Assembly: GCA_041652815.1 (NCBI GenBank)
Contig: JBAZGN010000002.1
Span: 366,261 to 430,260 of the forward strand
Direction: 5' to 3'
DNA: 64,000 nt
From: Candidatus Omnitrophota bacterium
GTDB lineage: Bacteria > Omnitrophota > Gorgyraeia > Duberdicusellales > 4484-171
Shown: positions 1 through 41,800 of the stretch, in pieces
Numbering within the stretch: position 1 is the first letter of the stretch
Layout: the number at the start of each line of letters is the position of its first letter
Position numbers and translations under genes: made by a program
Notes under the pieces: generated by a model
Database searches by the model: none
What the model was told of the DNA's origin: nothing
Seen by the model: the letters and a program-made list of their open reading frames with translations, nothing else

Positions 1-613
1 TTCTTCAGCTACAATAAGAAACGTAATGGAGACTCTGGAGAAAAAAGGGTTTCTTTCTCATATCCACACATCATCAGGGAGAGTCCCCACAACAAAGGGT
101 TTTAAACAGTACGTAGAATGTCTTAAGAAAGAAAAGATGGTAAATAATTACCCGATAGAGCTGGAATTTTATAATACAATTTCCGATAGCAGCCAGGTTA
201 TTAATAGTGCGCTGGATACTTTGGCGCTAAAAAGCGGTTATGCTTCATTTTTGGCAGTCTCTGGCGAAGGGCATAAGTTATTTTTTAGGGGCGCGCGTTT
301 TATTCTTGAGCAGCCGGAATTCGAAAACATCGTGCGGCTTAAGAGCGTTTTTTATGCTCTTGAGGTAAGATTAAATCAAATACAGGAGTTGCTACTTAAC
401 TATTTTGATGAGCAGGTAAAAATTTTGGTGGGCGATGAAATAGGTTTTGACGAAATATCGGATTGTTCGCTGGTTGTGTCTGGTTCCGGAGAAAAAAAGG
501 TTTCCTATTCACTGGCATTGCTTGGCCCGATGAGGATGGATTATGTAAGAGCTGTTTCCTGCTTGCAATCCATTAAATATCAGCTTGAAGCAATTATCGA
601 AGATAAGTTATGA
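1..613 (+). CDS. hrcA: Heat-inducible transcription repressor HrcA, C-terminal part (5' end lies off-window)
   Basis: Frame is open to the window start. VSSATIRN-like motif spans nt 2-28, then LE..G....HTSSGRVPT as in HrcA. Followed by grpE-dnaK-dnaJ. Confidence 0.8.
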
Positions 614-723
614 ACCCCGCCCTTCTAAGGCGCATTATGGTTTTTGAAAAATATAATAAATCTTACGAAAAACAAGGGTTGGGGTAAAAACAATAAATCT
701 AAAATACAAGGAGGAAGGGCGGG

Positions 724-1353
724 GTGAACGACGGTAAAGCAAAAAATAATAAAAACAACAAAGAAGAATTAGCTAAAGAAGAGAAGAAAGAAGAGCTTTG
801 CTTTCCGGTAGGCTCAGGTAAAGAAAAAAAAGAAGACTATGATGCTCTTTGGGGAAAATATACGCGGATCTGTGCGGATTTTGCTAATGCCAGAAAGCGC
901 TGGGACAGGGAAAAAGAAGACTTAATAAAATTCTCTACATCGTCGCTGATTAGAGACCTTTTAATAGTGCTTGATGAGTCAGAGCAGGCATTAAAAATGG
1001 TAAAAGAGCACGGCAATATAGAAGAAATTATAAAAGGCCTTGAAATGGCTTATAATAATTTTGTAAATCTTCTTAAAAAAAGAGGCCTTACACCTATAGA
1101 AAGTATTGGCAGGTTTTTTGACCCGCATTTACATGAAATAGTGGCAACTAAAGAAGTTGACGACTCAACAGATAAACCTATGGTTTTAGAAGAAATTCAA
1201 AAAGGTTATATGCTTGAAGATAAAGTATTACGTCCTTCAAGGGTAATTGTAGGGATTAAAAAACAGAGTACAGAGAACAGAGGGCAGAGTACAGATAACA
1301 GAGAACAGAAAACAGAAGAGGAAGAGCAAAGCCCAGAGGATAAAAAAAACTGA
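724..1353 (+). CDS. grpE: Nucleotide exchange factor GrpE
   Basis: GTG start after an AAGGAGG RBS. K/E-rich N-terminus and GrpE core. Synteny hrcA-grpE-dnaK. C-terminal low-complexity tail QSTENRGQSTDNREQ. Confidence 0.85.
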   Translation: MNDGKAKNNKNNKEELAKEEKKEELCFPVGSGKEKKEDYDALWGKYTRICADFANARKRWDREKEDLIKFSTSSLIRDLLIVLDESEQALKMVKEHGNIEEIIKGLEMAYNNFVNLLKKRGLTPIESIGRFFDPHLHEIVATKEVDDSTDKPMVLEEIQKGYMLEDKVLRPSRVIVGIKKQSTENRGQSTDNREQKTEEEEQSPEDKKN

Positions 1354-1414
1354 TCTCTGTTTTCTGTCATCTGTCGTCTGTAAACTAACCGACGAGTGAA
1401 ACGAGGAGGTTGAT

Positions 1415-3349
1415 ATGGCGAGAGTAATTGGTATAGATTTAGGAACTTCTAATTCAGCGGCAGCAGTAATGGAGGGGGATCGCCCTGTAATTCTTCCGTC
1501 AGCAGAAGGAGCGGGAGTTGCCAGCGGAAAAGCTTTTCCTTCTTTTGTTGCATTTACAAAAGACGGACAGAAACTTGTGGGTGAACCCGCAAGGCGCCAG
1601 GCTGCTATAAATCCTGAAGGAACTATTTTTGCGGCAAAACGCAAAATGGGAACAGATTATAAATTTAAGGTATTCGGCAAAGAATATACGCCTCAGCAGA
1701 TATCTGCGTTTATTTTACAAAAAATTAAACAGGACGCAGAAGCTTATCTTGGCGATAAAGTTGAAGAGGTGGTTATAACTTGCCCGGCATATTTTGACGA
1801 TAACCAAAGAACCGCCACAAAAGACGCAGGCGAAATAGCAGGGCTTAAGGTGCTTAGAATTATCAATGAGCCAACAGCCGCCTGCCTTGCTTACGGGCTT
1901 GAAAAAGCAGGAAAGGAATTAAAAATCCTGGTTTTTGACTTTGGCGGCGGAACTCTTGATGTCACCGTCATGGAGATGTGGAAAGAGGGTGGATTTAAAG
2001 TAATGGCAACAAGCGGAGATACACAGCTTGGCGGAACAGATATGGATAATGTCATAATTGATTATATTGTTAATCAATTCAAACGTGAAACAGGCATTGA
2101 TTTGCGTAATGACAAAATGGCAACGCAAAGAGTGCGCGAAGCTGCCGAAAAAGCAAAGGTAGAGCTTTCAAGCACTCTTACAACGGACATAAACCTTCCC
2201 TTTATAACCGCAGATAGCAGCGGGCCAAAACACCTTACAATGTCAATTAACCGCGCGAAAATCGAGGAATTGGTAGGTTCTATTGTAGAGCGCTGCCGCG
2301 GGCCGCTCGAGCAGGCGCTTCGCGACGCAAAAGCTGCTTTCGAAAAAGAAGGAGTAACTTTTAGCGATAAAACTGCGATAGATAAGATTATTATGGTAGG
2401 CGGCCCCACAAGAATGCCTATAGTTCAGAAATTCGTAGAAGATTATTTCGGTAAAAAAATTGAACGCGGGGTAGACCCCATGGAATGCGTTGCCTTGGGA
2501 GCAGCAGTGCAGGCAGCGATTATCAAGGGCGATGTAAAAGATGTGTTGCTTTTAGACGTAACACCCCTTTCTTTGGGTATTGAAACCTTAGGAGGAGTAA
2601 ATACCAAGCTTATAGAAAGAAATACAACTATACCTACAAGAAAATCCCAGATTTTTTCAACAGCTGCCGATAACCAGACCGCGGTTACCATACGCGTAAT
2701 ACAGGGAGAAAGGACTATGGCTGATGCCGAAGGCAATGTCGAGCTTGGCAGGTTTGATTTGGTTGGTATTCCTGCAGCACCCCGTGGAGTGCCTCAGGTT
2801 GAAGTTGCTTTCGATATAGACGCAAACGGAATCGTACATGTTTCAGCTAAAGATTTAGGCACGGGTAAAGAGCAGTCCATACGTATTACCGCTCCCAAGA
2901 AACTTTCCAAGGAAGAAATAGATAAAATGGTCCATGATGCCGAGAAATTTGCAGCTGAAGATGCGAAAAAGAAAGAAGAAGTAGAAACAGTAAACCAGGC
3001 AGACCAGCTGATTTACGCCACAGAAAAATCATTAAAAGATTATGGTGACAAAATTTCGCAAGCTGAGCGTGCCGACATTGAAGCAAAGATTAATGATTTA
3101 AAAACAGCAGTCAAAGATAAAAACGTAAATATGATTAAGAAAGGTATGGAAGATTTGACCAAAGTAGCACATAAGCTTGCTGAAGAAATCTATAAGAATG
3201 CATCTCAAAAACAGCAAGAACAAGGAAAGGCTAAGAGTGAGGCAGGCCCACAGGCTGGCCCTCAGGCCGGGCCAACCCAGGAAGCTCCAGAGCCGGAGAA
3301 GAAAGAGGATATTATCGACGCGGACTTTAAGGAAGAAGATAAGAAATAG
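1415..3349 (+). CDS. dnaK: Chaperone DnaK (Hsp70)
   Basis: [18 protein letters not shown] and VTIRV motifs; 644 aa. Confidence 0.97.
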
Positions 3350-3443
3350 CTATCAGCCATCAGTCGTCAGCTCTCAGCCCCCCCTAAGGGGCGCCCGTAA
3401 AGGGTGGCTGATAGCTGAAAGCTGACAGCTGATAACTGAAACA

Positions 3444-4565
3444 ATGAGTACACAAAAAAGAGACTACTACGAAATCTTAGGCGTTAAAAAAACTGCTTCT
3501 GTTGAGGATATAAAACGGGCATATCGGCAGCTTGTTATGCAATATCATCCTGATAGAGTTGCTCCCGAAAAAAAGAAGGAAGCTGAAGAAAAGTTTAAAG
3601 AACTTTCCGAGGCTTACGCGGTCTTAAGTGACCCCAGTAAAAAGCAGCTTTATGACCAGTATGGCCACGCCGGTGTTGATTCGCGTTATTCTACTGATGA
3701 TATTTTTAAGGGAGCTGATTTCTCAGATATTTTTAGAGGCCGTCAGGGTGCAGGACAAGGAGATTTTGGCAGTATTTTTGAAGAATTTTTTTCTGACCTT
3801 GGCTTTGATGTTTTTGGGGCATCCAGCCGTCAGGGACAGGGCCGCAGGCGCCATGGCGAAGATGTCCAGTTAGAAATGTCGGTGGCGCTTGAAGAGGCTG
3901 CTTTCGGAGCAGAGAAGGAAATTTCTTTCTATCACTACGAAAATTGTTCGCAGTGTAACGGAAGCGGTGTCCAGCCTGGTTCAAAAAAAGAAACTTGTTC
4001 AACGTGCCGCGGCAGAGGGGTAGTTTCCAGCAGAATGGGGCCTTTAAGTTTTTCGCAAACTTGCCCTGATTGTCAAGGAGAAGGGGCAACGTTTAAAAAT
4101 CGCTGTTCAAAATGTTCAGGCCAGGGCAGAATAAAGGTTAAAAAACAAGTCAAAGTAACAATACCGCAGGGTGTTGATGATGGTTCCGTGCTTCGCTTAA
4201 AAGGTGAAGGAAATTTCGCCGGTGCCGGATACGGTGATTTGTACCTGCATATAGTAGTAAAACCGCATATTCTTTTCCAGAGGCAAGGCGATGATGTAAG
4301 ATGCAAGGTAAAAATAAACGTCTTTAAGGCCATGCTTGGCGCAGAGATTGAGGTGCCGACTTTATCGGGGAATGTTAAGATGAATATTCCCACCGGCACT
4401 CAACCAAACGCAGTTTTCAGGCTCAAGGGGAAAGGAATAGCTAATTTACGTACAAAAAGATTGGGCGATGAGCTGGTTGAGGTTGAAATAGAAATACCAA
4501 AAAGGGTATCCGCAAACGAGAGAAACGTTTTACTTGAAATAGCAAAAGAGCGCGGTGAAATCTGA
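3444..4565 (+). CDS. dnaJ: Chaperone DnaJ
   Basis: J domain (HPD), G/F-rich region, four CxxCxGxG zinc-finger repeats. Confidence 0.95.
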   Translation: MSTQKRDYYEILGVKKTASVEDIKRAYRQLVMQYHPDRVAPEKKKEAEEKFKELSEAYAVLSDPSKKQLYDQYGHAGVDSRYSTDDIFKGADFSDIFRGRQGAGQGDFGSIFEEFFSDLGFDVFGASSRQGQGRRRHGEDVQLEMSVALEEAAFGAEKEISFYHYENCSQCNGSGVQPGSKKETCSTCRGRGVVSSRMGPLSFSQTCPDCQGEGATFKNRCSKCSGQGRIKVKKQVKVTIPQGVDDGSVLRLKGEGNFAGAGYGDLYLHIVVKPHILFQRQGDDVRCKVKINVFKAMLGAEIEVPTLSGNVKMNIPTGTQPNAVFRLKGKGIANLRTKRLGDELVEVEIEIPKRVSANERNVLLEIAKERGEI

Positions 4566-4690
4566 TCGCGAATATTCGCGAATTTAAACCTTGATAGTTT
4601 GATTAAGGTATAAACGCGAATACACGCGAATGGAAAACAAATGTAAACAAAACTATTCGCGACCATTCGCGTTGGATTCGCGAGAATTTG
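4566..4690. repeat. Hairpin element built from ttcgcgaat/attcgcgaa words
   Basis: Includes the perfect palindrome cgcgaatattcgcg. Related elements at 6270-6488 and 10722-10808. Confidence 0.8.
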
Positions 4691-4747
4691 TGTTTAGAAA
4701 CTTGCAACTTATAGCTTTGTGTATATAATATCAGGGAGGTTTTTGTT

Positions 4748-4975
4748 ATGCCTACGTATGATTACGAATGTACAAAATGCGGCCATCATTTTGAGGCTTT
4801 TCATAAAATAAGCGAGCAGAAAAAGATAGAATGCCCGAAATGCAAAGCTATAAGCAAAAAAAAGATAAGCGCAGGCAGCGGCCTGATTTTTAAGGGCAGC
4901 GGTTTCTATGCTACGGATTACAAAAAAAATAAATCCTGTGATTGCCCGAATAGCAAAAACTGCAATAAAAAATAA
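4748..4975 (+). CDS. FmdB-family zinc-ribbon regulatory protein
   Basis: MPTYDYEC..CGH.FE......CP.C N-terminus typical of the FmdB family. Confidence 0.7.
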   Translation: MPTYDYECTKCGHHFEAFHKISEQKKIECPKCKAISKKKISAGSGLIFKGSGFYATDYKKNKSCDCPNSKNCNKK

Positions 4976-5073
4976 TTGAGCCCTTAAGGTTTTTTATTAT
5001 CAGTGACTCATCCTGAGGAGCGAAGCGACGAAGGATCTCAAAACGGGACAATCAGTAAAATCTTTAAAATTTA

Positions 5074-6294
5074 ATGGCAGATATAATAAGGCCCTTCCGG
5101 GCTACACACTACAATCCTTCTTTTTTCAAAAATCTTTCTGCGTTTACTTGCCCGCCGTATGATGTTATAAGCAAAAAACAGCTTTCTTTGTTAAAAAGAA
5201 AATCTCCTTATAATTTTTCAAATATTCTTATTGCAACTAATAACGACTACAAAGAAATAGGCGAGAGGTTACGCAGCTGGATTGATAAACGGATATTGGT
5301 AGACGACCCGGCAGAGAGTATTTTCCTTTATGAACAGAGATTTAGAATCGGAACCGAGAAATATAAACGCTTCGGATTCCTTTCACTTTTGAAAATGAAT
5401 CAAAAAGGAGCAATTTTCCCTCACGAATATACTTTAAGCGCTCCGAAGGAAGACCGCAAAAAAGTAATAGAGGAAGTTGAGGCTAATTTAAGCCCGATAT
5501 TTGTGATAGCGCCGAAAAAGATTAACTATTTTCATGCGCTGCACAATCGGTATTGCACCAAAAAACCGTTCATGAGATTTAAAGATTTAGACGCGAATGA
5601 AAATCTGGTTTGGAAAATAACCGATAAGGATACGATAAAAAAAATATGTTCACAGGCAAACGGTAAAAATCTTGTGATAGCTGATGGGCACCACCGCTTT
5701 GAAGTAGCCTCCGGCTACTACAAGAGAAACAAAAGGCGTTTTAAAAACCTAAATTATATAATGAGTTACATAACAGACGCGCAGCGCGGGCTTGTAATAC
5801 TACCTACCCATAGAGTAATTTCAGTGCCGGATTTTGATGGTGCGCTTGCCACGCTTAAGCAATATTTTGATATAAAAGAAGTAAAAAACGATAATGTTCT
5901 TACAGGCCATCTTGGAAAAGAAAAAAAATTTTCCTTCGGTGTTTATAGACGGAGTAAATTCTATTTTCTGAAGTTGAAGAATGAAACTATCCTTGATAAG
6001 CTTTTCCCGGCGTCTCCCTATAAGAAACTTAATACGTATCTATTGCACCAGTTTGTTCTACCTATGCTTAAAACGGACGGTAGTATCCAATATACGCACG
6101 ACATAAAAGAAGCCGAAAAGCTGGCAGGCCACGATAAAACCGCTTTTATCTTAAAGCCGGTTAGTCTATCGGCAGTATTTGACATAGCCAATCGTGGCTA
6201 CCGCCTGCCTCAGAAATCAACATATTTTTATCCCAAAGTTTACAGCGGAATAGCCATACGAAGGTTTGCTAACGCGAATATACGCGAATTTTAA
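5074..6294 (+). CDS. DUF1015-like protein
   Basis: N-terminal M..I.PFRA.HYNP pattern resembles DUF1015. The last codons (ANANIREF) lie in the cgcgaat repeat. Confidence 0.45.
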   Translation: MADIIRPFRATHYNPSFFKNLSAFTCPPYDVISKKQLSLLKRKSPYNFSNILIATNNDYKEIGERLRSWIDKRILVDDPAESIFLYEQRFRIGTEKYKRFGFLSLLKMNQKGAIFPHEYTLSAPKEDRKKVIEEVEANLSPIFVIAPKKINYFHALHNRYCTKKPFMRFKDLDANENLVWKITDKDTIKKICSQANGKNLVIADGHHRFEVASGYYKRNKRRFKNLNYIMSYITDAQRGLVILPTHRVISVPDFDGALATLKQYFDIKEVKNDNVLTGHLGKEKKFSFGVYRRSKFYFLKLKNETILDKLFPASPYKKLNTYLLHQFVLPMLKTDGSIQYTHDIKEAEKLAGHDKTAFILKPVSLSAVFDIANRGYRLPQKSTYFYPKVYSGIAIRRFANANIREF

Positions 6295-6488
6295 CCTAAA
6301 TAGTTTATTTAGGCATAAACGCGAATATTCGTAATTAATAGGGCGCTCTGAATACTTGTTATATGCGTAAATTTGATTTATAATAAAGGCAAATATGCGC
6401 TAACGAAGTGCGATAAATTTATTCGCGTTCATTAGCGTTTGCACCTCTAATAAACATAAAGGTATAAATTCGCGACAATTAGCGTTTT
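6270..6488. repeat. Hairpin element built from cgcgaata/tattcgcg words
   Basis: Left arm overlaps the last codons of the DUF1015 gene. Confidence 0.75.
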
Positions 6489-7328
6489 ATGAGAATATTT
6501 AAAAAACCATTTCGTTATACTCTGGCAAGAAGAAGAAAGGAAATGCCTGACGGGCTTTGGAGTAAATGCCCCAGCTGTTCCCATCTTATTTTTAATAAAA
6601 TACTGCAGGAAAATTTAAAAGTGTGCCCTAAATGTAATTATCATTTTTCTCTTGTCTGCTGGGAACGCATAGAATTGCTTGTAGATGCTGATACCTTTAA
6701 GGAATTTGATAAGGATATGGAATCATTAGACCCTCTCAATTTTGCAGGGCCTAAATCCTACAAAGATAAATTAAAAGAAGATACGCAAGATACAGGATTA
6801 AAAGATGCGATAATAACCGGTGAAGCAAAAATGGACAAAAAAAATATTGCCCTGGGAGTTACCGATTCCCGTTTTATTATGGGCTCTATGGGTTCAGTAG
6901 TTGGTGAAAAAATTACCCGTCTTATAGAGTATGCTATTAGCAAAAAACTGCCGGTAATTATTGTTTCAGGTTCAGGCGGAGGAGCACGGATGTATGAGGG
7001 GTTACTTAGCCTTATGCAAATGGCAAAAACATGCGGGGCCCTTTCACGTTTAAAAGAAGCACGCTTACCATTTATTTCCGTGCTTACGCACCCGACAATG
7101 GCCGGCGTTATGGCATCGTTTGCGGGAATAGGTGATGTAATTATCGCCGAGCCGGGGGCGCTCATAGGCTTTACCGGGCCGCGGGTTATAAAACAGACGA
7201 TAAAACAGGATTTGCCTAGAGGTTTTCAAACTTCTGAATTTAACTTAGAGCATGGCCTTTTAGATATGGTGATAAGCAGAAAAGATTTAAAAGCGACTTT
7301 ATCCAAGTTATTGTATTATTTAACTTGA
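6489..7328 (+). CDS. accD: Acetyl-CoA carboxylase carboxyltransferase beta subunit
   Basis: N-terminal C4 zinc ribbon (CPSC..CPKC) and CT-beta core with GGARM. Confidence 0.9.
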   Translation: MRIFKKPFRYTLARRRKEMPDGLWSKCPSCSHLIFNKILQENLKVCPKCNYHFSLVCWERIELLVDADTFKEFDKDMESLDPLNFAGPKSYKDKLKEDTQDTGLKDAIITGEAKMDKKNIALGVTDSRFIMGSMGSVVGEKITRLIEYAISKKLPVIIVSGSGGGARMYEGLLSLMQMAKTCGALSRLKEARLPFISVLTHPTMAGVMASFAGIGDVIIAEPGALIGFTGPRVIKQTIKQDLPRGFQTSEFNLEHGLLDMVISRKDLKATLSKLLYYLT

Positions 7329-7420
7329 CATCTCTTTAACTAAAACATAAAATTATGCTTTGTTTGGTGTTTTGATTGGTGATTTTTTCTGTTTCTACTC
7401 TACCTTAATCTATAAAAAAT

Positions 7421-8524
7421 ATGGCACAAGTTAGTCTTAAAAATGTAATGAAACAATATAACGGTGATTCAATTGCCGTTAAGAATGTAAGCCTCGGCGT
7501 AGAGAACAAGGAGTTTCTCGTTCTTCTTGGCCCTTCCGGATGCGGTAAATCAACCACCCTGCGCATGATTGCTGGCCTTGAGTGCCCTACTGAAGGAGAA
7601 ATCTACATTGCAGACCGTCTGGTAAATAACGTCCCGGCTAAAGACAGGAATATTGCGATGGTTTTTCAAAACTACGCTCTTTATCCTCATATGTCGGTTT
7701 ATGAAAATATGGCATTTGCACTTAAACTACGTAACTATGCAAAGACAGACATAGATAAACGCGTAAAAGAAGCAGCTCAGATATTAAGCATAATGCATTT
7801 ATTGAATAGAAAACCCAGAGAGCTTTCAGGCGGAGAGCGGCAGAGAGTTGCGGTAGGAAGGGCAATTGTAAGAAAGCCCCTTGTTTTTCTTTTTGATGAA
7901 CCCCTGAGCAATCTTGATGCAAAACTTCGCGTACAAATGCGCACAGAAATCCATAAACTGCATCTTAAGATTCAGACTACAATGATTTATGTTACACATG
8001 ACCAGACAGAAGCAATGACTCTCGGAGACCGAATTGCCGTAATGAAGGATGGAAATTTGCTTCAGCTGGATACGCCGCTAAATGTTTACAATAATCCTAT
8101 CAATAAATTTGTCGCGGGATTCATCGGTTCTCCCCCGATGAATTTTATGAAAGGTATCATTATAAAGAAAAATGAAAGCCTTTATTTTAATGAAGGAAGT
8201 TTTAAGATAAAGATACTTGAGGGAATGAACGATAAGCTCAAAGCTTATATGGATAAAGAGGTTATACTAGGGCTACGCCCAGAAAATATTTATGATAAAT
8301 TATTTGCATCAAACTCTACCCCCGATAATACGGTTGCCGTAGTCTGTGATGTCGTTGAAACTATGGGTTCGGAAAATTACGTATATCTTTCCAGCGGAAA
8401 ACATATCTTTGTAGCAGTGGTTGAAGCTTCGAATATACCTTCTATCGGAAGTATGATAGAGGTTGTCTTTGATATGAAGCGAGTTCATTTTTTCGACCCA
8501 GCTAGCGAAGAAACCATTGTATAA
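7421..8524 (+). CDS. ABC transporter ATP-binding protein, MalK/UgpC-type with C-terminal TOBE domain
   Basis: Walker A GPSGCGKST, signature LSGGERQR, Walker B LFDEP. Confidence 0.9.
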   Translation: MAQVSLKNVMKQYNGDSIAVKNVSLGVENKEFLVLLGPSGCGKSTTLRMIAGLECPTEGEIYIADRLVNNVPAKDRNIAMVFQNYALYPHMSVYENMAFALKLRNYAKTDIDKRVKEAAQILSIMHLLNRKPRELSGGERQRVAVGRAIVRKPLVFLFDEPLSNLDAKLRVQMRTEIHKLHLKIQTTMIYVTHDQTEAMTLGDRIAVMKDGNLLQLDTPLNVYNNPINKFVAGFIGSPPMNFMKGIIIKKNESLYFNEGSFKIKILEGMNDKLKAYMDKEVILGLRPENIYDKLFASNSTPDNTVAVVCDVVETMGSENYVYLSSGKHIFVAVVEASNIPSIGSMIEVVFDMKRVHFFDPASEETIV

Positions 8525-9773: not shown

Positions 9774-10720
9774 TTTTTCTGTTAATAATCGTATTTATCC
9801 TTGAAGAAATACTTCTCTTAAAAAGATTTCTGAATAAAAATTTTAGAAATAAAGAGCAGCTGTTGGTTAAAATAGATGCGTTGGATAAAGAACTGAGCCC
9901 TATAAAAAAGAATATAGATGCCTTAGAAAAACAAATGTCTGAGCATTTCTTTTTCTATGACCTGATGCGTAAACTTTCACCTTTTCTTAACAAAAAAGGC
10001 CTCTTTAAGGTTTTTTCTGAAGAAATAAAATATCTCGGCGAAGTGGAAGCCGTAGAATTCAGCCGCCCGGAGAACGAAAAAAAATATTTGCAATTTGTGT
10101 TTGATGATGAAGGAAGTAGCTTATATGTAAAAACTACATCGAAAAAAATTATCGAGCATCAGGATGTTTTAAGGAAGCTCCTTGAGCTTTGTACAGAGAG
10201 GATAAACCTTTATGACAGATTCCAACAGCTATCTATATATGATGCTTTAACCGAAACCTATAACCGGCGTTATTTTGTAATACGATTTATCGAAGAGTTC
10301 GAGCGTGCCAAAAAGTTTTCCTTAAAACTATCGTTTCTCATGATTGATATTGATAATTTTAAAAAGATAAACGATACTTACGGCCATTTAGTGGGCGATG
10401 CTGTTTTAAAAGAGATAGCGAAGATTATAAAGCAAAACATAAGAGAAATAGATTCTTTAGCCAGATTCGGGGGCGAGGAGTTTTCGTTAATTTTACCTGA
10501 GACGGATAAGATGTCCGCAATAGTAGTTGGGGAAAGAATACGAAGCAAAATTTCCGAGAGAATAATAAAGGCTTTTGATGAAACGCTAAGTGTTACGATA
10601 AGCACCGGAGTGGGAAGTTTTCCGCAGAATACTTTGTATTCGGATGTTTTGATGGAAATTGCCGATAAGGCGCTTTATCAGGCAAAAATTTCCGGCAGAA
10701 ACCGGGTGTGTTGGTTTTGA
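9755..10720 (+). CDS. GGDEF diguanylate cyclase
   Basis: RFGGEEF motif and coiled-coil N-terminus. Overlaps the upstream paralog. Confidence 0.8.
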   Translation: MFYLAVIFLLIIVFILEEILLLKRFLNKNFRNKEQLLVKIDALDKELSPIKKNIDALEKQMSEHFFFYDLMRKLSPFLNKKGLFKVFSEEIKYLGEVEAVEFSRPENEKKYLQFVFDDEGSSLYVKTTSKKIIEHQDVLRKLLELCTERINLYDRFQQLSIYDALTETYNRRYFVIRFIEEFERAKKFSLKLSFLMIDIDNFKKINDTYGHLVGDAVLKEIAKIIKQNIREIDSLARFGGEEFSLILPETDKMSAIVVGERIRSKISERIIKAFDETLSVTISTGVGSFPQNTLYSDVLMEIADKALYQAKISGRNRVCWF

Positions 10721-10721
10721 T

Positions 10722-10808
10722 AAACGCGAATTTCCACGAATTTGGAACGAATTAACACGAATAAATTCGTGGTAATTCGTCTTGTATCCGTGGTAATTCG
10801 TGTCTAGC
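10722..10808. repeat. Hairpin element built from cacgaatt/aattcgtg words
   Basis: Four cgaat words on the left arm, three attcg words on the right. Confidence 0.75.
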
Positions 10809-10848
10809 ATTGCAATTAAAAATTTTCCTGCTATAATTCTACTTCATT

Positions 10849-18745: not shown

Positions 18746-18747
18746 TG

Positions 18748-18848
18748 AAGGTTACGAATGTTACGAAAGTTACGCAGGTTACGAAGGTTACAATAAACCA
18801 CGAGGTTTTAAATGTAACTTTCGTAACTTCCCGTAACCTTCGTAACCT
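18748..18848. repeat. Hairpin element built from gttacgaa/ttcgtaac words
   Basis: Related copy at 41617-41764. Confidence 0.8.
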
Positions 18849-22506: not shown

Positions 22507-23922
22507 GTGAAAAAAGAACCCGTAAAAATCAAAGAAGTAGAAGCTAAGGTCAGAGCCGAAAATTTCAATGAAGTTATATTGGGATATGGCGAAGAAGAGG
22601 CTCTTGCCGAGGCGGGTCGGTGCTTGCAATGCAAAAATCCGCTTTGTATCTCAGGGTGTCCGGTTGAGATAGATATAAAAACATTTATTTATAAAATTAC
22701 CCAGAAAGATTATGCTGGCGCTTATAATACTATCCGGGAAAAAAATAATTTCCCTTCTATTTGCGGAAGAGTTTGCCCCGCTGAATACCAATGCCGAAAA
22801 GCATGCGTTTTAAGCAAAAAAGGTGAGCCTTTTGCAACGCCTCAGGCGATAAACATTCATTTTTTAGAGCGTTTTATTGGCGATTACGGAATGAATCATA
22901 ACGATTCTACGCCCCACGCCCCACGCCCCACGCCACACGCCAAGCGAGTGGCTATAGTTGGCTCCGGCCCTGCAGGCATAGCTTGCGCCGGCGAACTTGC
23001 CCGTAGAGGAATAAAAGTAGTTATGTTTGAAGGCTTGCATAAATTAGGGGGGGTGCTGCGTTATGGAATACCGCCTTTTAGGCTGCCAAGAAATATTCTT
23101 GATTATGAGATAGATTCACTTAAAAAAATGGGCGTTGAATTTATACCTAATTTTATTGTGGGTAGAAACAAAGATGTGGACGAATTATTAAAAGAAGGGT
23201 TTTCCTCGGTGTTTTTAGGCTTGGGCGCGGGAATACCGTCTTTCTTAGGCATTAAAGGGGAAAACCTTTGCAATATTTATTCGGCTAATGAATTTTTGAC
23301 CAGAGTAAATTTGATGTCTGCTTATAAGTTCCCTAAAGCTCACACCCCGGTAAACATAGGCAAAAGTATGGTTGTTATCGGCGGCGGCAATACTGCTATG
23401 GATGCAGCGCGATGCGCTTTGCGATTACAGAAAATGAATGGCATTAACCCAAATACCACTATTCTTTATCGCCGTAGCGAGGTAGAAATGCCGGCAAGGC
23501 GCCTTGAGATTGAACATGCCAAGGAAGAAGGCATACAATTTAAACTTTTAGTTAAGCCGCAGGAGTTTTTCGGGGATGAGAAAGGTTTTGTTACGAAACT
23601 GCGTTGTTTACAATGCGAGTTGGGAAAGCCAGATAGCTCAGGCCGGCGAAAGCCCATAGAAATTCCGGGAAGTGATTTTGAGGTAGATTGCGATATCGCG
23701 ATAGTTGCTATAGGTTTAAATGCTAATCAAATATTAACTAAAGTTACTCCAGCGTTAAAAACAGATAAATATGGCGATATTATTGTGGAGCAAGAGGCCA
23801 TGGAAACATCCATAAAAAATGTTTTTGCCGGAGGAGATATTGTCGGAGGTGAAGGAACAGTAATTGAAGCAATGGGTATGGCTAAAAAGGCAGCCAAGGC
23901 TATTATTGATAGGCTTAAATAA
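22507..23922 (+). CDS. GltD-like NAD(P)H oxidoreductase (NfnB/SudA-type, glutamate synthase small-subunit family)
   Basis: Two Fe-S Cys clusters and a GSGPAG FAD motif. Likely GTG start at 22507 after AAGAGG (the ORF opens at 22459). Carries an internal cgcccca repeat linker. Confidence 0.8.
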   Translation: MKKEPVKIKEVEAKVRAENFNEVILGYGEEEALAEAGRCLQCKNPLCISGCPVEIDIKTFIYKITQKDYAGAYNTIREKNNFPSICGRVCPAEYQCRKACVLSKKGEPFATPQAINIHFLERFIGDYGMNHNDSTPHAPRPTPHAKRVAIVGSGPAGIACAGELARRGIKVVMFEGLHKLGGVLRYGIPPFRLPRNILDYEIDSLKKMGVEFIPNFIVGRNKDVDELLKEGFSSVFLGLGAGIPSFLGIKGENLCNIYSANEFLTRVNLMSAYKFPKAHTPVNIGKSMVVIGGGNTAMDAARCALRLQKMNGINPNTTILYRRSEVEMPARRLEIEHAKEEGIQFKLLVKPQEFFGDEKGFVTKLRCLQCELGKPDSSGRRKPIEIPGSDFEVDCDIAIVAIGLNANQILTKVTPALKTDKYGDIIVEQEAMETSIKNVFAGGDIVGGEGTVIEAMGMAKKAAKAIIDRLK

Positions 23923-25357: not shown

Positions 25358-25394
25358 TAAATAGGCGCCTCATTTTGAGGCGCCTATTTTATTT
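25358..25394. terminator. Bidirectional rho-independent terminator between convergent gdhA and glnA
   Basis: aaataggcgcctcattttgaggcgcctatttt: perfect hairpin with T runs on both sides. Confidence 0.8.
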
Positions 25395-25400
25395 TAGCGG

Positions 25401-31951: not shown

Positions 31952-33370
31952 ATGTTGGCACTTCTGATTACAGTTCCTTTTTTCAGTATATTATTCTTTA
32001 ATCTGCCGTTTCTTGGCTCTTTAAGGCGGGCAATTACTACCTGGGCTTATGTTTTGTTTTGTGCTCAGATAGCGTTAGCGCTTCGGTTCTTTTCTCCCGA
32101 ATTCTTAAATAGTTTCACCTCGCAAGCGCATCTTTTTAATTTCAATATCGCTTTGGATAATTTAAGCCTGATTATACTTTTGTCATCTGCGATTGTGCTT
32201 TTTATAACTTTGATAATCGCAACTTATACGATTGATTCGCAAAGGCAAAGGTTTAATTTCGTAAACTTGCTCCTTTTTGCTCAAGCCGGGTTAAACGGCC
32301 TGTGTTTGGCACGAGATATGTTTTCGCTTTATATTTTTATTGAAATAGTTGCCGTAACTTCCTATATTCTGATAGTTTTTGATAAAGATATCAAGGCGCT
32401 GTCAGCGGCTTTTAAATATGTCATATTATCTACCGTAGCAAGTGTTTTTATGGTTGCATCAATTGCTCTGATGCTTTTAATTTCAGGAGATACTAAATTT
32501 TCCGTAATTCAAAAAACTATCAGCGGCCAATCGCCTAATTTCTTAATTATGTTTTCAGTTGTGCTTTTCGTATGCGCGGCCTTTGTTAAAGCCGGAGTTG
32601 TTCCTTTCCACGGCTGGCTTCCTGAAGTATATTCCCGTTCGCCTGCGGCAGTTTCGGTCCTGTTTTCCGGTATAATTTCAAAAGCGCTTGGAATTTATAC
32701 GCTTATGCGCGTAGCCAAGGATGTATTCGGAGTTAACGTTGCCTTAAATAATGTTCTTCTTTTTATCGGAACCGTTTCTATCATTGTAGGCGCATTAGCG
32801 GCCTTGGTTCAGAAGGATTTTAAAAAGATGCTCGGGTTTTCAAGCATAAGCCAGATAGGATATATTATTTTGGGTGTAGGCTCCGGTACAATTCTGGGTT
32901 TCGCCGGCGCTGCATTTCATATTTTTAACCACGCAATTTTTAAATCGCTTTTATTCGTAAATTCTGCGGCAATTGAGAGTAGAACCCGCACTACGCACAT
33001 GCATGAATTAGGCGGACTTTCCAAAGTTATGCCAATTACAGGTTTTACTTCTATTTTGGGTTTTATTTCTGCGGCGGGGCTGCCGCCTTTAGCAGGATTT
33101 TGGAGCAAGCTTTTAATCGTAATGGCTCTTATATTATCCGGGCACTTTATCTATGCAATTCTGGCAATTGTTTTAAGCGCGTTAACTCTTGCCTATCTGC
33201 TTTCCATGCAGAGGCTGGTTTTCTTTGGTAAATTAAATGAAAGGTTTATAAAAATAAAAGAAGCTGAATTCGGATTTAGTTTAGCGGCAATTATACTTGC
33301 TGCGATAATAATTATTACGGGCTTATTTTACCCGTTTGTGTTAGGGAAATTCATATTGCCTCTGGTGTAG
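31952..33370 (+). CDS. Group 4 hydrogenase membrane subunit, NuoM/N/MrpD-like
   Basis: NuoLMN family. Internal Met start chosen (the ORF opens at 31901). Confidence 0.75.
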   Translation: MLALLITVPFFSILFFNLPFLGSLRRAITTWAYVLFCAQIALALRFFSPEFLNSFTSQAHLFNFNIALDNLSLIILLSSAIVLFITLIIATYTIDSQRQRFNFVNLLLFAQAGLNGLCLARDMFSLYIFIEIVAVTSYILIVFDKDIKALSAAFKYVILSTVASVFMVASIALMLLISGDTKFSVIQKTISGQSPNFLIMFSVVLFVCAAFVKAGVVPFHGWLPEVYSRSPAAVSVLFSGIISKALGIYTLMRVAKDVFGVNVALNNVLLFIGTVSIIVGALAALVQKDFKKMLGFSSISQIGYIILGVGSGTILGFAGAAFHIFNHAIFKSLLFVNSAAIESRTRTTHMHELGGLSKVMPITGFTSILGFISAAGLPPLAGFWSKLLIVMALILSGHFIYAILAIVLSALTLAYLLSMQRLVFFGKLNERFIKIKEAEFGFSLAAIILAAIIIITGLFYPFVLGKFILPLV

Positions 33371-33374
33371 TTCT

Positions 33375-33545
33375 TTAGTATTTTGGTAAGGAAGTCACAT
33401 CGGTTGCGGCAATTGTTGCGGTTGCACAACCAGCATCGTAACACGTAGCATGTAGCAGGTAACACGTCAAGGAAACAAGAATCAAAAGAAGACGTGCTAC
33501 TTGATACGTGTGACGTGATACATAATCCATACGAGCCGCGCAACC
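33375..33545. repeat. Hairpin element with gtaacacgt/acgtgctacttgatac words plus ggttgcacaacc palindrome
   Basis: Paralogous to 15876-15990. Confidence 0.65.
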
Positions 33546-34996: not shown

Positions 34997-35001
34997 TTAT
35001 T

Positions 35002-35153
35002 AATAACCAAGTTCCAAGATACAATAACCAAATAATGACCAATAATCAAATTCCAATAACCAAACAAAAAAGGACAAAACTGTTTGGTCATTGGTTATTG
35101 GATATTGGAATTTATTTGGAGCTTGTATCTTGGTTATTGGTTATTTCGTAAGC
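35002..35153. repeat. ~150-bp hairpin element built from aataaccaa/ttggttatt words, copy 1 of 3
   Basis: Near-identical to 39451-39603 and 40335-40468. Confidence 0.85.
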
Positions 35154-35173
35154 AGGTAGTTAAATAAAAAACA

Positions 35174-35638
35174 ATGGGAGTGCTTAAAAAAGTTGTAACT
35201 TGGGCGCGCATAAAATCACCTTGGATTTTACATTTTAATACCGGTGCTTGTAACGCCTGCGACATAGAAATTATCGCAACGCTTACCCCGCGTTACGACC
35301 TTGAACGATTTGGCGTGCAACTTAAAGGCACCCCGCGCCACGCAGATGTTCTTATTTGTTCAGGCCCGGTAACAAAACAGGTGCACGATAGGTTACGCAG
35401 AATTTACGAACAGATGTGCGAACCTAAATTCGTAATTGCAGTAGGCACTTGCGCTTGTTCGGGCGGCGTGTTTAAAGGCTGTTATAATGTTGATTCCGGA
35501 ATCGATATGGTTTTGCCTGTAGCAGCATATGTTCCGGGGTGCCCTGCAAGCCCCAAAGCTATAATTGATGGAGTGGTTAAGCTGTTGCAGAGCCTTGAAG
35601 AAAAAGAAACCAGAAACCAGAGCACAGAAACCAGATGA
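35174..35638 (+). CDS. [NiFe] hydrogenase small subunit (NuoB/HycG/EchC-like)
   Basis: CNACDIE, GTCACSGG and GCPASP cysteine motifs. The C-terminal tail KETRNQSTETR is encoded by repeat words. Confidence 0.88.
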   Translation: MGVLKKVVTWARIKSPWILHFNTGACNACDIEIIATLTPRYDLERFGVQLKGTPRHADVLICSGPVTKQVHDRLRRIYEQMCEPKFVIAVGTCACSGGVFKGCYNVDSGIDMVLPVAAYVPGCPASPKAIIDGVVKLLQSLEEKETRNQSTETR

Positions 35639-35746
35639 TAGAAAATAAAAATAAAATGGTAAAGTTTATTCCGTCATATCCTTATACTCTGTACTCTAGT
35701 TTCCGGTTTCTGGTTTCTCTGATAAACCGAGCGAAGCGAGGTTAAC

Positions 35747-36202
35747 ATGAATAGCGAAGAAAAAATACAACAAGAACTAATTGCTAAATTCAGCTACCTT
35801 GACGGTAAAGTCAAAGTGCAACGCGCTCGGCGCATTTTTGCGGAAGTAGAACAGGAAAAGTTTTTTGAAGTTTTTGACTATATTGTAAGAGACGCCGGTT
35901 TTTCTCATCTTTGCGCAATTACTGGCTTGGATGAAGGCCCCGGCACTCTGGGTGTTATTTACCATCTTTCAGGCAATGCCGGTGTTATCATTAACCTGAA
36001 AACATCGATTCAGAAAGAAAATCCCATACTCCAAACGGTAACACCTTATTTTCCGGGAGCGGAAATTTATGAAAGAGAGTTAACAGATTTATTAGGCGTT
36101 GAAATAGATACTTTATCTCCGGGGCCAAGATATCCCTTGCCGGATGATTGGCCGCATGACGAATTTCCTTTGCGTAAAGACTGGAAACCGCGGGATAAAT
36201 AA
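35747..36202 (+). CDS. NuoC/HycE-N/EchD-like subunit
   Basis: 30-kDa-subunit-like; position before the large subunit. Confidence 0.7.
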   Translation: MNSEEKIQQELIAKFSYLDGKVKVQRARRIFAEVEQEKFFEVFDYIVRDAGFSHLCAITGLDEGPGTLGVIYHLSGNAGVIINLKTSIQKENPILQTVTPYFPGAEIYERELTDLLGVEIDTLSPGPRYPLPDDWPHDEFPLRKDWKPRDK

Positions 36203-36204
36203 TA

Positions 36205-36298
36205 GAAGCGGATATCCGCGGATCTAAACGCGGATATCCGCCAGCGAATTACCGTGCGTCTATCCGCGTAGATATCCGCGGTAATCCGCTTCTATAAT
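36205..36298. repeat. Hairpin element built from gcggatatccgc words
   Basis: Outer stem tagaagcggat/atccgcttcta. Confidence 0.7.
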
Positions 36299-36311
36299 AT
36301 AGGAGTATAAA

Positions 36312-37538
36312 ATGCGTAAACAAAATAAATTTAGAATTCCCATAGGACCGCAGCACCCTGCGCTTAAAGAGCCAGCTGGTTTTAGCGTGGCTTTAAAGGG
36401 AGAAAAAATAAAGGGCGTTAGTGTCCGGCTTGGTTATAATCATCGCGGCATAGAGAAAGCCTGTGAACAGCGGACTTATGTCCAGGATGTATATCTTATC
36501 GAGCGTATCTGCGGCATATGCTCGCATACACATTCAACCTGTTTTGTGCAGGGAGTTGAGGAAATTGCTGGTTTGGCAGTTCCTAAAAGGGCGCTTTATA
36601 TCCGCACGATAATCGGAGAGCTTGAGCGTATCCACAGCCATTATTTATGGCTAGGGGTAGCCGGCCACGAGATAGGTTTTGATACTCTGCTTATGTATTC
36701 CTGGCGTGACAGGGAAGTAGTTATGGATGTGTTAGCTATGCTTACCGGAAATCGTGTAAATTACGGCATAAATTGTATCGGCGGAGTCCGGCGCGATATA
36801 GACGAAGCGCAGGTAGGCCAAGTCCTTAAAGCTATAGATATTCTTGAAGAAAGGACTAAGTATTATATTGAAGTGGCTACCGAAGAAACCACAATGATAA
36901 AAAGGCTTTCCGGTGTTGGAGTATTAAGCCGCGAAGATGCTTTACGTCTCGGTGCAGTCGGCCCGACTGCCCGAGCTTCAGGCTTGGATTATGATATAAG
37001 GCGCATTGACCCTTATGCAGCATACGCGGAGCTTGATTTTGATGTAATAACAGATACTCACTGTGATGTCTACGGCCGGACAGTCGTGCGGATGAAAGAG
37101 CTAATGCAATCCTGCCGGATAATTCGCCAGGCGCTTAAGAATATGCCGCAAGGCCCGATTTCAATAAAGGCTCCGCGTAAAATCGCCGCCGGCGAAGTTA
37201 TCAGCAGATACGAAGCCCCGCGCGGAGAAGATGTGCATTATATTAAATCAAACGGCACAGAACAGCCGGAAAGAGTAAAAGTTCGAGCGCCCACGCTTGC
37301 CAATATGAAAGCGGTTAAGCATATGCTTCGTGACAGGTATTTGGCTGATATGCCTATTGTTATCGCTGCGATAGACCCTTGTTTTTCCTGCACTGACAGA
37401 ACTATTGCACTTGATAACCGCGATACCAAAAAGAAAGAAATCATCGAGTGGAAAACTTTGCGCAATTACGGTATAGAGTGGTACAAGGGGCGGGGAATAG
37501 ACTTTACAGATTTAAATAGAAGGTTAGCTTCTATTTAA
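36312..37538 (+). CDS. Group 4 [NiFe] hydrogenase large (catalytic) subunit
   Basis: Both Ni-Fe ligation motifs present: RICGICSHTH (L1) and DPCFSCTDR (L2). Complex I NuoD lacks these. Confidence 0.9.
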   Translation: MRKQNKFRIPIGPQHPALKEPAGFSVALKGEKIKGVSVRLGYNHRGIEKACEQRTYVQDVYLIERICGICSHTHSTCFVQGVEEIAGLAVPKRALYIRTIIGELERIHSHYLWLGVAGHEIGFDTLLMYSWRDREVVMDVLAMLTGNRVNYGINCIGGVRRDIDEAQVGQVLKAIDILEERTKYYIEVATEETTMIKRLSGVGVLSREDALRLGAVGPTARASGLDYDIRRIDPYAAYAELDFDVITDTHCDVYGRTVVRMKELMQSCRIIRQALKNMPQGPISIKAPRKIAAGEVISRYEAPRGEDVHYIKSNGTEQPERVKVRAPTLANMKAVKHMLRDRYLADMPIVIAAIDPCFSCTDRTIALDNRDTKKKEIIEWKTLRNYGIEWYKGRGIDFTDLNRRLASI

Positions 37539-37655
37539 ATAACTATCAGTTATTGGCTTTGGCTAAAAGGAAAAGCCAAACCACGGCCTTCTGGCCAGCA
37601 GTTTTCTGCTTTCAGCTGAAGACTGACGACTGAAAGCTGATAGCTATATTTAATT

Positions 37656-39450: not shown

Positions 39451-39603
39451 GAATAACCAAGCTCCAAGATACAATAACCAAACAATGACCAATAATCAAA
39501 TTCCAATAACCAAACAAAAAAGGACAAAACTGTTTGGTCATTGGTTATTGGATATTGGAATTTGTTTGTATCTTGTACCTTGGTTATTGGTTATTTCGTA
39601 AGC
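39451..39603. repeat. aataaccaa/ttggttatt hairpin element, copy 2
   Basis: See copy 1. Confidence 0.85.
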
Positions 39604-39638
39604 ATCTTTGTTAATCTGTGTAACAAAAGGAGGAAACA

Positions 39639-40334: not shown

Positions 40335-40468
40335 AATAACCAAGCTCCAAGAAACAATAACCAAATAATATCCAATAACCAAATATCAATAACCAAACAT
40401 TTCTGTTTGGTTATTGGTCATTGGAACTTGGAATTTGTTTGGAACTTGTATCTTGGTTATTGGTTATT
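40335..40468. repeat. aataaccaa/ttggttatt hairpin element, copy 3
   Basis: See copy 1. Confidence 0.8.
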
Positions 40469-40597
40469 TTTATCTTAACGTAAACGTAACCCTAAGACGA
40501 AATTGGCATCGTAACCATAGCCATAACCGAATTCTTAATAGGCTTGTAGATAAAATTAGGAGAAATTTAAGTGAAAATCTCTGGAAGGCGTGAATAT

Positions 40598-40993
40598 ATG
40601 GGTGCGCTGGAATCGGTTGCAATGACCGATATCATCCTTAATATGTTTATTTTCTTTTTCATTTCTTTCAGCCTTCTTTACACATTTAACACAAGCCGCC
40701 TGCATAAACTTGGTGTTACCATACCAAAAGCAAAAACTGCCACACCCGTTGACGACGCAAGTGTTATAAATATTTCCGTAGCCAAAAACGGTGTAGTTTA
40801 TTTTGAAAAAGAAGCCGTAACTCTGGATGAGCTTATTGACGGCATAGAGGTTACTAAATCAAAAAATCCTAGCCTACGCGTTCTCGTGCGTGCAGACCAA
40901 ACCGCGCCCTTTAAAGATGTTGCCAAAGTTTTGGATGTTTTAAACGGCCTTCAGGTTCAAAATATCGGTATAGCAGTCGAAGCGGAGAGGTAA
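40598..40993 (+). CDS. ExbD/TolR biopolymer transport protein
   Basis: Single N-terminal TM plus ExbD periplasmic domain. ATG at 40598 preferred over GTG at 40571. Confidence 0.8.
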   Translation: MGALESVAMTDIILNMFIFFFISFSLLYTFNTSRLHKLGVTIPKAKTATPVDDASVINISVAKNGVVYFEKEAVTLDELIDGIEVTKSKNPSLRVLVRADQTAPFKDVAKVLDVLNGLQVQNIGIAVEAER

Positions 40994-41100
40994 TGAATAG
41001 ATGGCAGATGACAGTTTGGCAGATGGCAGATAAAATCTATCTGCATAACTGCTATCTGCCATCTGCTATCCGCTTGAGTTTTTAACCATATGAGGTGATG

Positions 41101-41616: not shown

Positions 41617-41764
41617 GTTACGAAGGTTACGGATGTTACGAGGGTTACGAAAGTTACCCTTAAACCGCGTGTTTTATTGTAACCTCCGTAACTTAATTCT
41701 TCCGCCTCCGGCGGAAGAATTAACGTAACCAGACTGCCGTAGGCAGGCGCGTAACCTTCGTAAC
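41617..41764. repeat. Hairpin element built from gttacgaa/ttcgtaac words
   Basis: Related to 18748-18848. Confidence 0.8.
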
Positions 41765-41766
41765 AA

Positions 41767-41800
41767 AAAAAAGAGGAGCCAAAAAAGCTCCTCTTTTTTA
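41767..41800. terminator. Bidirectional terminator hairpin
   Basis: aaaaaagaggagccaaaaaagctcctctttttt. Confidence 0.7.

Follow-up and report, generated by a model that had tools for sequence, protein, structure and literature searches.

The question raised by this locus is what writes the C-terminal tails of proteins whose genes end in tandem arrays of a short DNA word. The stretch analysed comprises 64,000 nt of a Candidatus Omnitrophota genome (assembly GCA_041652815.1, contig JBAZGN010000002.1, positions 366,261 to 430,260 of the forward strand; hereafter the window), and at a number of its gene junctions an array of such words is followed by an array of their complements, the two forming the arms of a hairpin. 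A first-pass annotation had claimed that the left arms of these word hairpins lie inside the upstream gene at grpE, dnaK, the hydrogenase small subunit gene hydS and a DUF1015 gene. By comparison with related loci we found that (i) the 5' arm encodes the end of GrpE, HydS and the DUF1015 protein but not that of DnaK, (ii) elements of this kind are present in the window where syntenic relatives lack them, and (iii) the peptide depends on the word; the anatomy of the elements, these gains and this dependence can be seen directly in the loci. In the reading that we consider probable, palindromic word repeats that colonise gene junctions overwrite stop codons, and the translated 5' arm writes the tail.

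The window has a G+C content of 39% and carries 66 of its 69 long open reading frames (ORFs) on the + strand; a protein annotated in a metagenome-assembled genome of Candidatus Omnitrophica matches its GrpE at 100% identity. The genes treated as cases, assigned using Pfam, belong to the hrcA-grpE-dnaK-dnaJ operon and to a group-4 (Mbh/Ech-like) hydrogenase operon, and include the DUF1015 gene. Loci of close relatives (L numbers) were retrieved by exact protein look-up: L162, L164 and L165 for the heat-shock region (GrpE 83-86% identical, gene order from hrcA to accD as in the window) and L169 (HydS 91% and HydL 89% amino acid identity) and L167 for the hydrogenase operon. Fold z-scores were calculated by comparing the RNA fold with 200 shuffles. 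Tandem arrays were identified using Tandem Repeats Finder (TRF), with dinucleotide shuffles as the null for their number. Protein ends are quoted up to the stop codon, and the coordinates of the features are collected in Table 1.

At grpE the array lies well beyond the folded part of the protein. The Pfam GrpE domain covers residues 10-176 of 209, leaving 33 further codons, and an AlphaFold model (28 orthologues) was confident for residues ~31-180 and gave a predicted local distance difference test score (pLDDT) below 50 for residues 184-209; the tail is predicted to be disordered and to lie outside the GrpE fold. The eight heptamers inside the frame are translated as QSTENRG QSTDNRE QKTEE, and TRF reported for them a period of 7 (7.9 copies) together with a period-21 superstructure (2.6 copies). 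The last ~20-30 residues of GrpE are encoded by the hairpin 5' arm. The stop codon TGA occupies 1351-1353 and the complementary words begin immediately after it, just as the first-pass annotation had described for acagaga words and their complements. The RNA fold of this junction has an energy of -38 kcal/mol (z = -5.8; 0 of 200 shuffles as good), and tail and hairpin are identical in sequence in an independent ENA assembly from another sample (L001). The CAGA core is invariant in 8 of 8 words, including 10 third-codon positions, and variation is confined to word boundaries, irrespective of codon phase. Because the core is invariant at third-codon sites and the variation falls at word boundaries, a DNA-level repeat process, rather than amino acid selection, appears to fix the sequence of the GrpE tail.

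In Bacillota and other phyla GrpE ends directly after the beta-domain (..VKVS), and Omnitrophota GrpE carries tails of 20-35 residues. A 7-residue periodicity (p <= 0.02) was detected in 13 of 49 GrpE tails (tails of at least 14 residues), which span identities from 100% down to ~50%. Among the loci with DNA, at least six different words occupy the one grpE/dnaK hairpin slot with the 5' arm within the tail, and the tail peptides are exact three-frame translations of their words. The pair ACAGAGN / TCTGT (window and L171) yields TENRGQS in the window, AGACCRA / GTCTT yields TEDQRPK (L164), GAAGGAC / GTCCTTC yields GRETKDDKK (L004), GTCACAC / GTGTGAC (L009 and L012) yields ESHDTGHT in L009, GAGCACC / GGTGCTC yields APEHPSTRAPE (L087) and NNNCCAG / CTGGNNN yields GSPEHQAPSAQ (L090). 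The position of the stop codon differs between loci: L087 and L090 have the stop in the loop, the window has it where the 3' arm starts (first base), and in L012, which has the word of L009, it comes earlier, within the 5' arm. In L171 (88% identity) there are three words compared with the eight of the window, and the ORF enters the 3' arm to end in ..KKLFCTP. By these comparisons the GrpE word tail is old and phylum-wide, and no novelty of this genome. The first-pass annotation had expected the tails to be lineage-specific extensions that orthologs from distant taxa would not carry. This held for the DUF1015 protein and HydS and failed in part for GrpE and altogether for DnaK, the tail of which is conserved; tails like that of GrpE recur within the phylum (to ~50% identity) and not outside it. 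At the grpE/dnaK junction L162 has no hairpin and a spacer of 10 nt. At the place of the window's hairpin L165 has a 248-nt insertion (7625-7872 of that locus) with a called 68-aa ORF.

An explanation at the level of the protein would regard the tails as selected charged, disordered extensions, with words that arise by slippage and a complementary arm that is secondary or incidental. Tails of similar length (protein of 205-210 aa) in nearly all close Omnitrophota GrpE, hairpin-less L162 and L165 included, fit this explanation, as do three arrays that have no partner arm: the ACAGA array retained in L172, a GGTCCAG array in the HydS tail of L168 and an ACGCCCC array that serves as an inter-domain linker in a gltD-like gene. 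We nevertheless consider it unlikely. Across lineages the tail peptides have in common only what the words encode, the word cores are invariant in all codon phases, synonymous sites included, and the tails of the DUF1015 protein, DnaJ, the 30-kDa hydrogenase subunit and HydS come with a palindromic insertion of more than 100 nt that is absent from relatives.

Such an insertion is found at the junction of DUF1015 and accD. The DUF1015 ORF (5074-6294) ends with eight codons and a stop, GCT AAC GCG AAT ATA CGC GAA TTT TAA, that contain two CGCGAAT words and are part of a palindromic element, so that the origin of ANANIREF in cgcgaata words, as first annotated, was borne out. In L162, L164 and L165 the protein ends in ..IAIRRFGV, compared with ..IAIRRFANANIREF (RRFANANIREF) in the window, and the spacer to accD measures 35 nt in these relatives vs 195 nt in the window. 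The insert is homologous to an element after dnaJ, with which it shares the CGCGAAT words and an inner hairpin, AACCTnnATAGTTTnATTnAGG. The element after dnaJ stands where relatives have a small simple hairpin; DnaJ ends in ..GEI in the window vs ..GEF in relatives, and a promoter-like TTGCAA..TATAAT further downstream is conserved. The short DUF1015/accD spacer of L162 (12365-12399; the same in L164 and L165) has GTATAAACGCTGAATTT, which is similar to the core of the CGCGAAT element, GTATAAACGCGAAT, and may have been a seed or a preferred target, or may be a remnant.

The hydrogenase operon provided further junctions for comparison. In L169 and L167 it is compact, most junctions overlapping or measuring 0-3 nt, vs hairpin elements at 8 junctions in the window. 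Of the 7 junctions compared, 6 had an altered C-terminus, and at junctions without elements the C-terminal ends were unchanged. The hydS ORF (35174-35638) ends in AGAAACC words, with the stop TGA (35636-35638) within the decaying array, which confirmed the word hairpin first noted there. HydS ends in EEKEDKGQKK or EEKEENQKQEAK in relatives and in EEKETRNQSTETR in the window; among 120 homologues the usual end is SLEEKE followed by 2-8 mostly K/E residues, and few have word-like tails. The HydS of P0100 has the word-like tail GPRNQIPGTREK, with a similar PRNQ. In another Omnitrophota lineage (L168, 1934-1966) the HydS tail (..KEGSRIQGPGSGKK) consists of four GGTCCAG words and is followed by a 5-nt spacer.

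Several proteins that the first-pass annotation had not listed also differed from their syntenic relatives. The 30-kDa subunit gene ends with the codons CGG GAT AAA TAA (RDK), read from a CGCGGAT word; its product ends in KPRDK vs KPKE(L/P)..EEKKNA in relatives, where an 8-aa longer protein overlaps hydL. The spacer that follows the MbhA-like antiporter subunit measures 200 nt in the window vs -4/0 nt in relatives, and the protein ends in LPLV vs LPLAGVFK / LPLGSGGI. The ends of ExbB and ExbD are also unlike those of relatives. Copy 1 of an AATAACC element (165 nt) is a clean insertion that left the 110-aa subunit protein unaltered. On these comparisons, shortening of C-terminal tails by the elements appears to be as frequent as extension. 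The claim that the repeats create or replace C-termini can thus be upheld for the DUF1015 protein, HydS and these unlisted proteins; it cannot for DnaK.

Two junctions bear on how the arms are made. At the end of hydL the peptide LNRRLASI corresponds to LNKKLSSI in L169, and several nucleotide changes all raise the complementarity of the arms; in the hairpin after exbD the outer stem copies native coding sequence. Judged by sequence, both suggest that arm complementarity was built locally. Replacement of the hydL tail by an inverted duplication, which a comparison with L167 had indicated, was rejected: the closer L169 shows that the peptide was kept and the codons were reshaped. As an observation on the same operon, a 96-aa GIY-YIG ORF (PF01541, E = 4.9e-14; 34377-34667) is inserted between two hydrogenase subunit genes; L167 and L169 lack the gene and have junctions of 1 nt and 58 nt, respectively, at this place.

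Table 1. Word hairpins, palindromic elements and associated features of the window, with positions counted from its first letter.
Feature	Position	Strand	Remarks
grpE ORF, 209 aa	724..1353	+	fold ends near residue 180; word-encoded tail is residues ~179-209
grpE/dnaK hairpin, 5' arm	1262..1317	+	8 tandem heptamers NNCAGAN inside the grpE frame
grpE/dnaK hairpin, 3' arm	1354..1382	+	4 complementary heptamers (TCTGTNN)
dnaK 12-nt in-frame tandem repeat (AGPQ units)	3240..3267	+	part of no hairpin
dnaK/dnaJ word hairpin (TCAGCNN / NNGCTGA)	3347..3438	+	z = -6.4; untranslated
CGCGAAT palindromic element at dnaJ stop	4563..4692	+	directly after/overlapping the stop; z = -7.2
CGCGAAT element, DUF1015/accD	6268..6488	+	first 27 nt (6268-6294) encode ANANIREF and stop, in place of GV and stop
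CGAAT-family period-10 word hairpin	10718..10809	+	starts at stop codon of gene ending 10720
GAAGGTTAC (period 9) word hairpin	18747..18846	+	2 nt past stop at 18745
Junction after MbhA-like antiporter subunit	33368..33525	+	word hairpin 33438-33520
AATAACC element copy 1	34997..35155	+	between 110-aa subunit stop and hydS ATG
hydS hairpin, 5' arm	35605..35638	+	four AGAAACC words (35605-35635), encoding TRNQSTETR (9 residues) and stop
hydS hairpin, 3' arm	35695..35718	+	GGTTTCT words, 57 nt downstream; z = -5.1
GCGGATATCC (period 10) hairpin	36190..36301	+	overlaps 30-kDa subunit gene end
hydL terminal hairpin, perfect 13-bp	37510..37540	+	last codons and stop of hydL; z = -5.8
AATAACC element copy 2, hycI/exbB	39452..39605	+	HycI end differs from relatives
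AATAACC element copy 3, exbB/exbD	40335..40471	+	
AGATGGC word hairpin	40980..41075	+	outermost stem is last exbD codons AAGCGGA paired with TCCGCTT

The DnaK tail, which had likewise been tied to a hairpin, proved to be ordinary. Its AGPQ stretch (3239-3298) lies 50 nt upstream of the hairpin and has a 12-nt period instead of hairpin words. One 12-nt in-frame unit more than in L162, L164 and L165 is the sole difference in the tail; the GP(E/Q).. tail and the conserved C-terminal end are kept in all three, in L165 even though its dnaK/dnaJ hairpin uses different words (TTGAGTT/AACTCAA). The window's hairpin starts at the dnaK stop codon TAG and ends 5 nt short of the dnaJ ATG. Of 20 Omnitrophota loci, ~14 have a hairpin at dnaK/dnaJ, and the words are of at least six unrelated types; such hairpins occur in the window and in L004, L009, L012, L035, L079, L090, L112, L162, L164 and L165. 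They begin at the dnaK stop and reach to within a few A-rich bases of the dnaJ ATG, which lacks a Shine-Dalgarno sequence. The word at dnaK/dnaJ of L009, L012 and L035 is GTCACAC, which L009 and L012 also have at grpE/dnaK. Compact dnaK/dnaJ junctions without a hairpin were found in L006, L017 and L083.

This distribution invites the explanation that the hairpins are selected RNA structures of operons, acting in processing or stabilisation, as partial terminators or in stop-start coupling, and that the GrpE tail is constrained by RNA and is no by-product of a selfish repeat. Unrelated hairpins fill the same slots in many lineages (six word types at grpE/dnaK and at least six at dnaK/dnaJ), the word hairpins at the hydL/nuoH slot differ between the window and L167, dnaK/dnaJ is occupied far more often than ordinary junctions are (0 of 12 in L169), and the base of the dnaK/dnaJ stem sets the dnaK stop beside the dnaJ ATG. 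We regard this explanation as possible but doubtful, given that the grpE/dnaK hairpin is lacking in a close relative (L162) and the dnaK/dnaJ hairpin is missing from the three compact junctions named above, that there is no G-U strand bias, that the stems have periodic mismatches instead of compensatory pairs, and that neither an Rfam family nor a U-tract was found. Somewhat more tentative still is its bolder form, in which Omnitrophota word hairpins would be functional fold-out modules for stop-start adjacency and/or chaperone stoichiometry, built de novo by slippage and intra-strand templating, with the C-terminus of GrpE dictated by nucleic-acid structure throughout the phylum.

The process that we favour, overwriting of stop codons by junction-colonising repeats, would run as follows. 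Palindromic elements resembling repetitive extragenic palindromic sequences (REPs) or MITEs (miniature transposable elements with inverted repeats) would colonise gene junctions, each arm being a tandem array whose imperfect word measures 7, 9 or 10 nt; some elements would belong to dispersed families and others would have grown or been reshaped locally through slippage and arm-to-arm complementarity. Because the operon junctions of this clade are only a few nt long, an element would readily meet a stop codon, and wherever the stop or the final codons were covered the ORF would run into the 5' arm. A 7-nt period rotates through the three frames, and a nearly T-free arm holds no TAA, TAG or TGA; since the T-poor 5' arm is stop-free in every frame, reading would continue to a stop in the loop or in the T-rich 3' arm. 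The product would be a hydrophilic, disordered tail, with a 7-residue repeat where the words are heptamers (three words span 21 nt and hence 7 aa) and a sequence dictated by the word and not by protein function, though the C-terminus may also be shortened. Maintenance in frame would account for the 21-nt superperiod. In line with this scheme the predicted ORFs enter the arms at grpE, hydS, DUF1015 and the 30-kDa subunit gene, and T makes up 0-10% of translated 5' arms and 17-54% of their 3' arms. The translated arms encode polar, charged peptides, and the opposite orientation would encode hydrophobic ones.

We infer that stem-loops form in the mRNA from these elements, that the elements are tolerated, and that hairpins are probably favoured at some slots, for example dnaK/dnaJ and grpE/dnaK. 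Since most Omnitrophota dnaK/dnaJ slots hold hairpins, with at least six word types, tolerance or selection of structures that fold out would fit: a folded-out hairpin would keep the upstream stop near the downstream start, and it could serve as an operon-internal stabiliser of 3' ends or as an attenuator.

Several points weigh against this reading. No transposition hallmark and no insertion sequence (IS) or transposase was found in the 64 kb covered of a contig of at least 448 kb, in ORFs that were not screened exhaustively for them, and insertion of the elements is read from their presence and absence only. The stems have regularly spaced mismatches of 1-3 nt at variable word positions and not compensatory changes, and there is no G-U strand asymmetry (45 vs 40), both strands folding equally well; because the G-U counts are similar on both strands, the pairing is no proof of a role at the RNA level over one at the DNA level. 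That translated arms tend to be T-poor is partly automatic, in that only stop-free arms can be read; selection against hydrophobic tails as its cause was set aside for this reason. Translation of the tails is assumed from the ORFs; tryptic peptides within the word tails are GQSTDNR and EQKTEEEEQSPEDK for GrpE, NQSTETR for HydS and the junction peptide FANANIR for the DUF1015 protein. Finally, all Omnitrophota GrpE have a charged tail of ~20-35 aa, even those of hairpin-less L162 and L165, and L172 keeps its array without a 3' arm; the tail may therefore be maintained for its own sake.

Some of the elements form families. An alignment of the three AATAACC copies extends over ~150 nt, at a mean column identity of 83%, and the whole element is an inverted repeat; these AATAACC/CCAA-word copies all lie within one operon, none occurs in relatives, and two have the right flank TTTCGTAAGCA. 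Dispersed near-identical copies with terminal inverted repeats, as in MITEs, are thus found for AATAACC, and the three CGCGAAT copies have an inner hairpin in common. The CGCGAAT, GGTTACGAA and CAGCTGA words recur at several loci of the window, and the GAAGGTTAC word recurs in a hairpin at 41614-41765. No copies of the AATAACC and CGCGAAT families were found in 1 Mb of other loci, close relatives included. A search for target-site duplications by comparing filled and empty sites (L167, L169) returned ambiguous short A-rich matches and a possible duplication of ~15 nt at the mbhA/mbhD junction.

The window has 27 tandem arrays with periods of 7-10, and its dinucleotide shuffles have 6.3 +/- 2.5; the majority of the 27 have period 7, and 15 lie in intergenic DNA, which makes up 14% of the window. 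In many Omnitrophota loci the density of word arrays is 3-10 per 10 kb, vs 1.7 per 10 kb in loci of other phyla. The word hairpins tested had z-scores between -5 and -7, and none of 200 shuffles folded as well. An ungapped stem scan at stop codons, underpowered given the periodic stem mismatches, returned 4 of 66 gene ends vs 1 of 141 controls. It is very improbable, then, that these are ordinary variable C-termini beside terminators or controlling inverted repeat of chaperone expression (CIRCE) operators, or assembly artefacts, that resemble words by chance. Such an explanation would suit the DnaK tail and the C-termini of HydS and HydL, which are variable in all orthologues. It accords poorly with arrays four-fold commoner than in shuffles, with the fold z-scores, with an identical independent assembly and with analogous structures in many independent metagenomes, nor does it agree with the lack of a CIRCE match and of T-tracts after the hairpins in a window that has canonical terminators elsewhere.

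The identity of the hairpins with intrinsic terminators was rejected. No T-tract follows the word hairpins, the downstream sequence being for example AAACTAACC or AAACAATG, and a terminator scan of positions 1-7500 returned 8 hits vs 7.1 expected from shuffles; the sole hit that overlaps a word element (4666-4684) is a short internal stem in the CGCGAAT element after dnaJ. Canonical terminators with a G+C-rich stem and a T-tract are present at operon ends (25363-25395, 41770-41800 and 53375-53420). The CIRCE operator (TTAGCACTC-N9-GAGTGCTAA) was also rejected, with no match at up to 3 mismatches in the whole window, and Rfam 15 at gathering score gave no matches on either strand of the whole window.

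Among known systems, intergenic hairpin repeats at the ends of operon genes are a feature shared with REP/BIME, REPIN, Neisseria REP2/Correia, pneumococcal BOX/RUP/SPRITE, ERIC and BRE elements. Liang, Rudd and Deutscher reportedly found in 2015 that REPs near stop codons lower translation of the upstream gene. Membership in the REP/REPIN class was rejected: the hairpins measure 60-170 nt, their 5' ends (TAGCTATCAG, AATAACCAAG, GAAGGTTACG, AGAAGCGGAT etc.) have no common head, and unlike REPs they comprise many unrelated words per genome, with tandem-repeat arms and periodic mismatches. REPs are 20-40 bp long with a conserved GTAG or CGTC head and a link to RAYT transposases (PMC3733652). The resemblance to cyanobacterial short tandemly repeated repetitive (STRR) sequences lies in tandem heptanucleotide arrays enriched in intergenic DNA. 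The STRR heptamers are said to go back to Mazel et al. in 1990. The arrays here are indeed built of 7-nt tandem units and mostly intergenic, but in another phylum and with other words, and unlike STRR sequences they form inverted pairs that fold into stop-abutting hairpins and are read as protein. For bacteria, an excess of heptameric repeats is described (PMC4692102).

Rickettsia palindromic elements (RPEs) are palindromic repeats of ~100-150 bp that are translated as extra ORF segments tolerated by the host protein (PMC10969869). As in RPEs, a palindromic repeat here becomes part of an ORF. Compared by description, RPEs are internal, in frame and encode a family-conserved peptide, whereas the elements of the window are 3'-terminal, replace the stop and terminal residues and belong to a different phylum, with no kinship in sequence to be expected, and their arms are tandem word arrays, which hence encode a short-period repeat peptide. 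In-frame fusions of small repeats to genomic ORFs are also on record for several repeat families, and some of these repeats extend the 3' ends of genes (PMC3184786). The changes in hydL vs L169, all of which raise complementarity, and the exbD stem resemble quasi-palindrome correction by intra-strand template switching, which serves here as a mutational model only, the mechanism not being directly provable from sequence alone.

Translated repeat extensions are thus already known from other bacterial elements, and the present one is an unusually clear, phylum-wide case; our literature searches found no paper describing tandem-word hairpins in Omnitrophota. It provides a clean natural example of non-coding structural repeats making new C-terminal protein sequence, with ancestral states visible in syntenic relatives, and a simple rule for which arm is readable, a T-free arm being stop-free in every frame. 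It also flags a pervasive tandem-word hairpin architecture in Omnitrophota and calls for caution in annotation, since a low-complexity tail in a genome of this kind may be no functional domain but a translated repeat arm. Were the grpE/dnaK and dnaK/dnaJ hairpins functional, the heat-shock operon would possess a new, operon-internal control element.

Two further observations concern other genes of the window. The ACGCCCC array of the gltD-like gene comprises five tandem heptamers (22905-22946) that encode STPHAPRPTPHAKR with no complementary arm nearby, and forms the linker between the Fer4_20 (aa 32-147) and Pyr_redox_2 (aa 163-474) domains of the protein. At 42394-43905 a 503-aa protein is encoded in which an RVT_1 reverse transcriptase is fused to a C-terminal TIR domain, and which looks like an anti-phage defence gene product.

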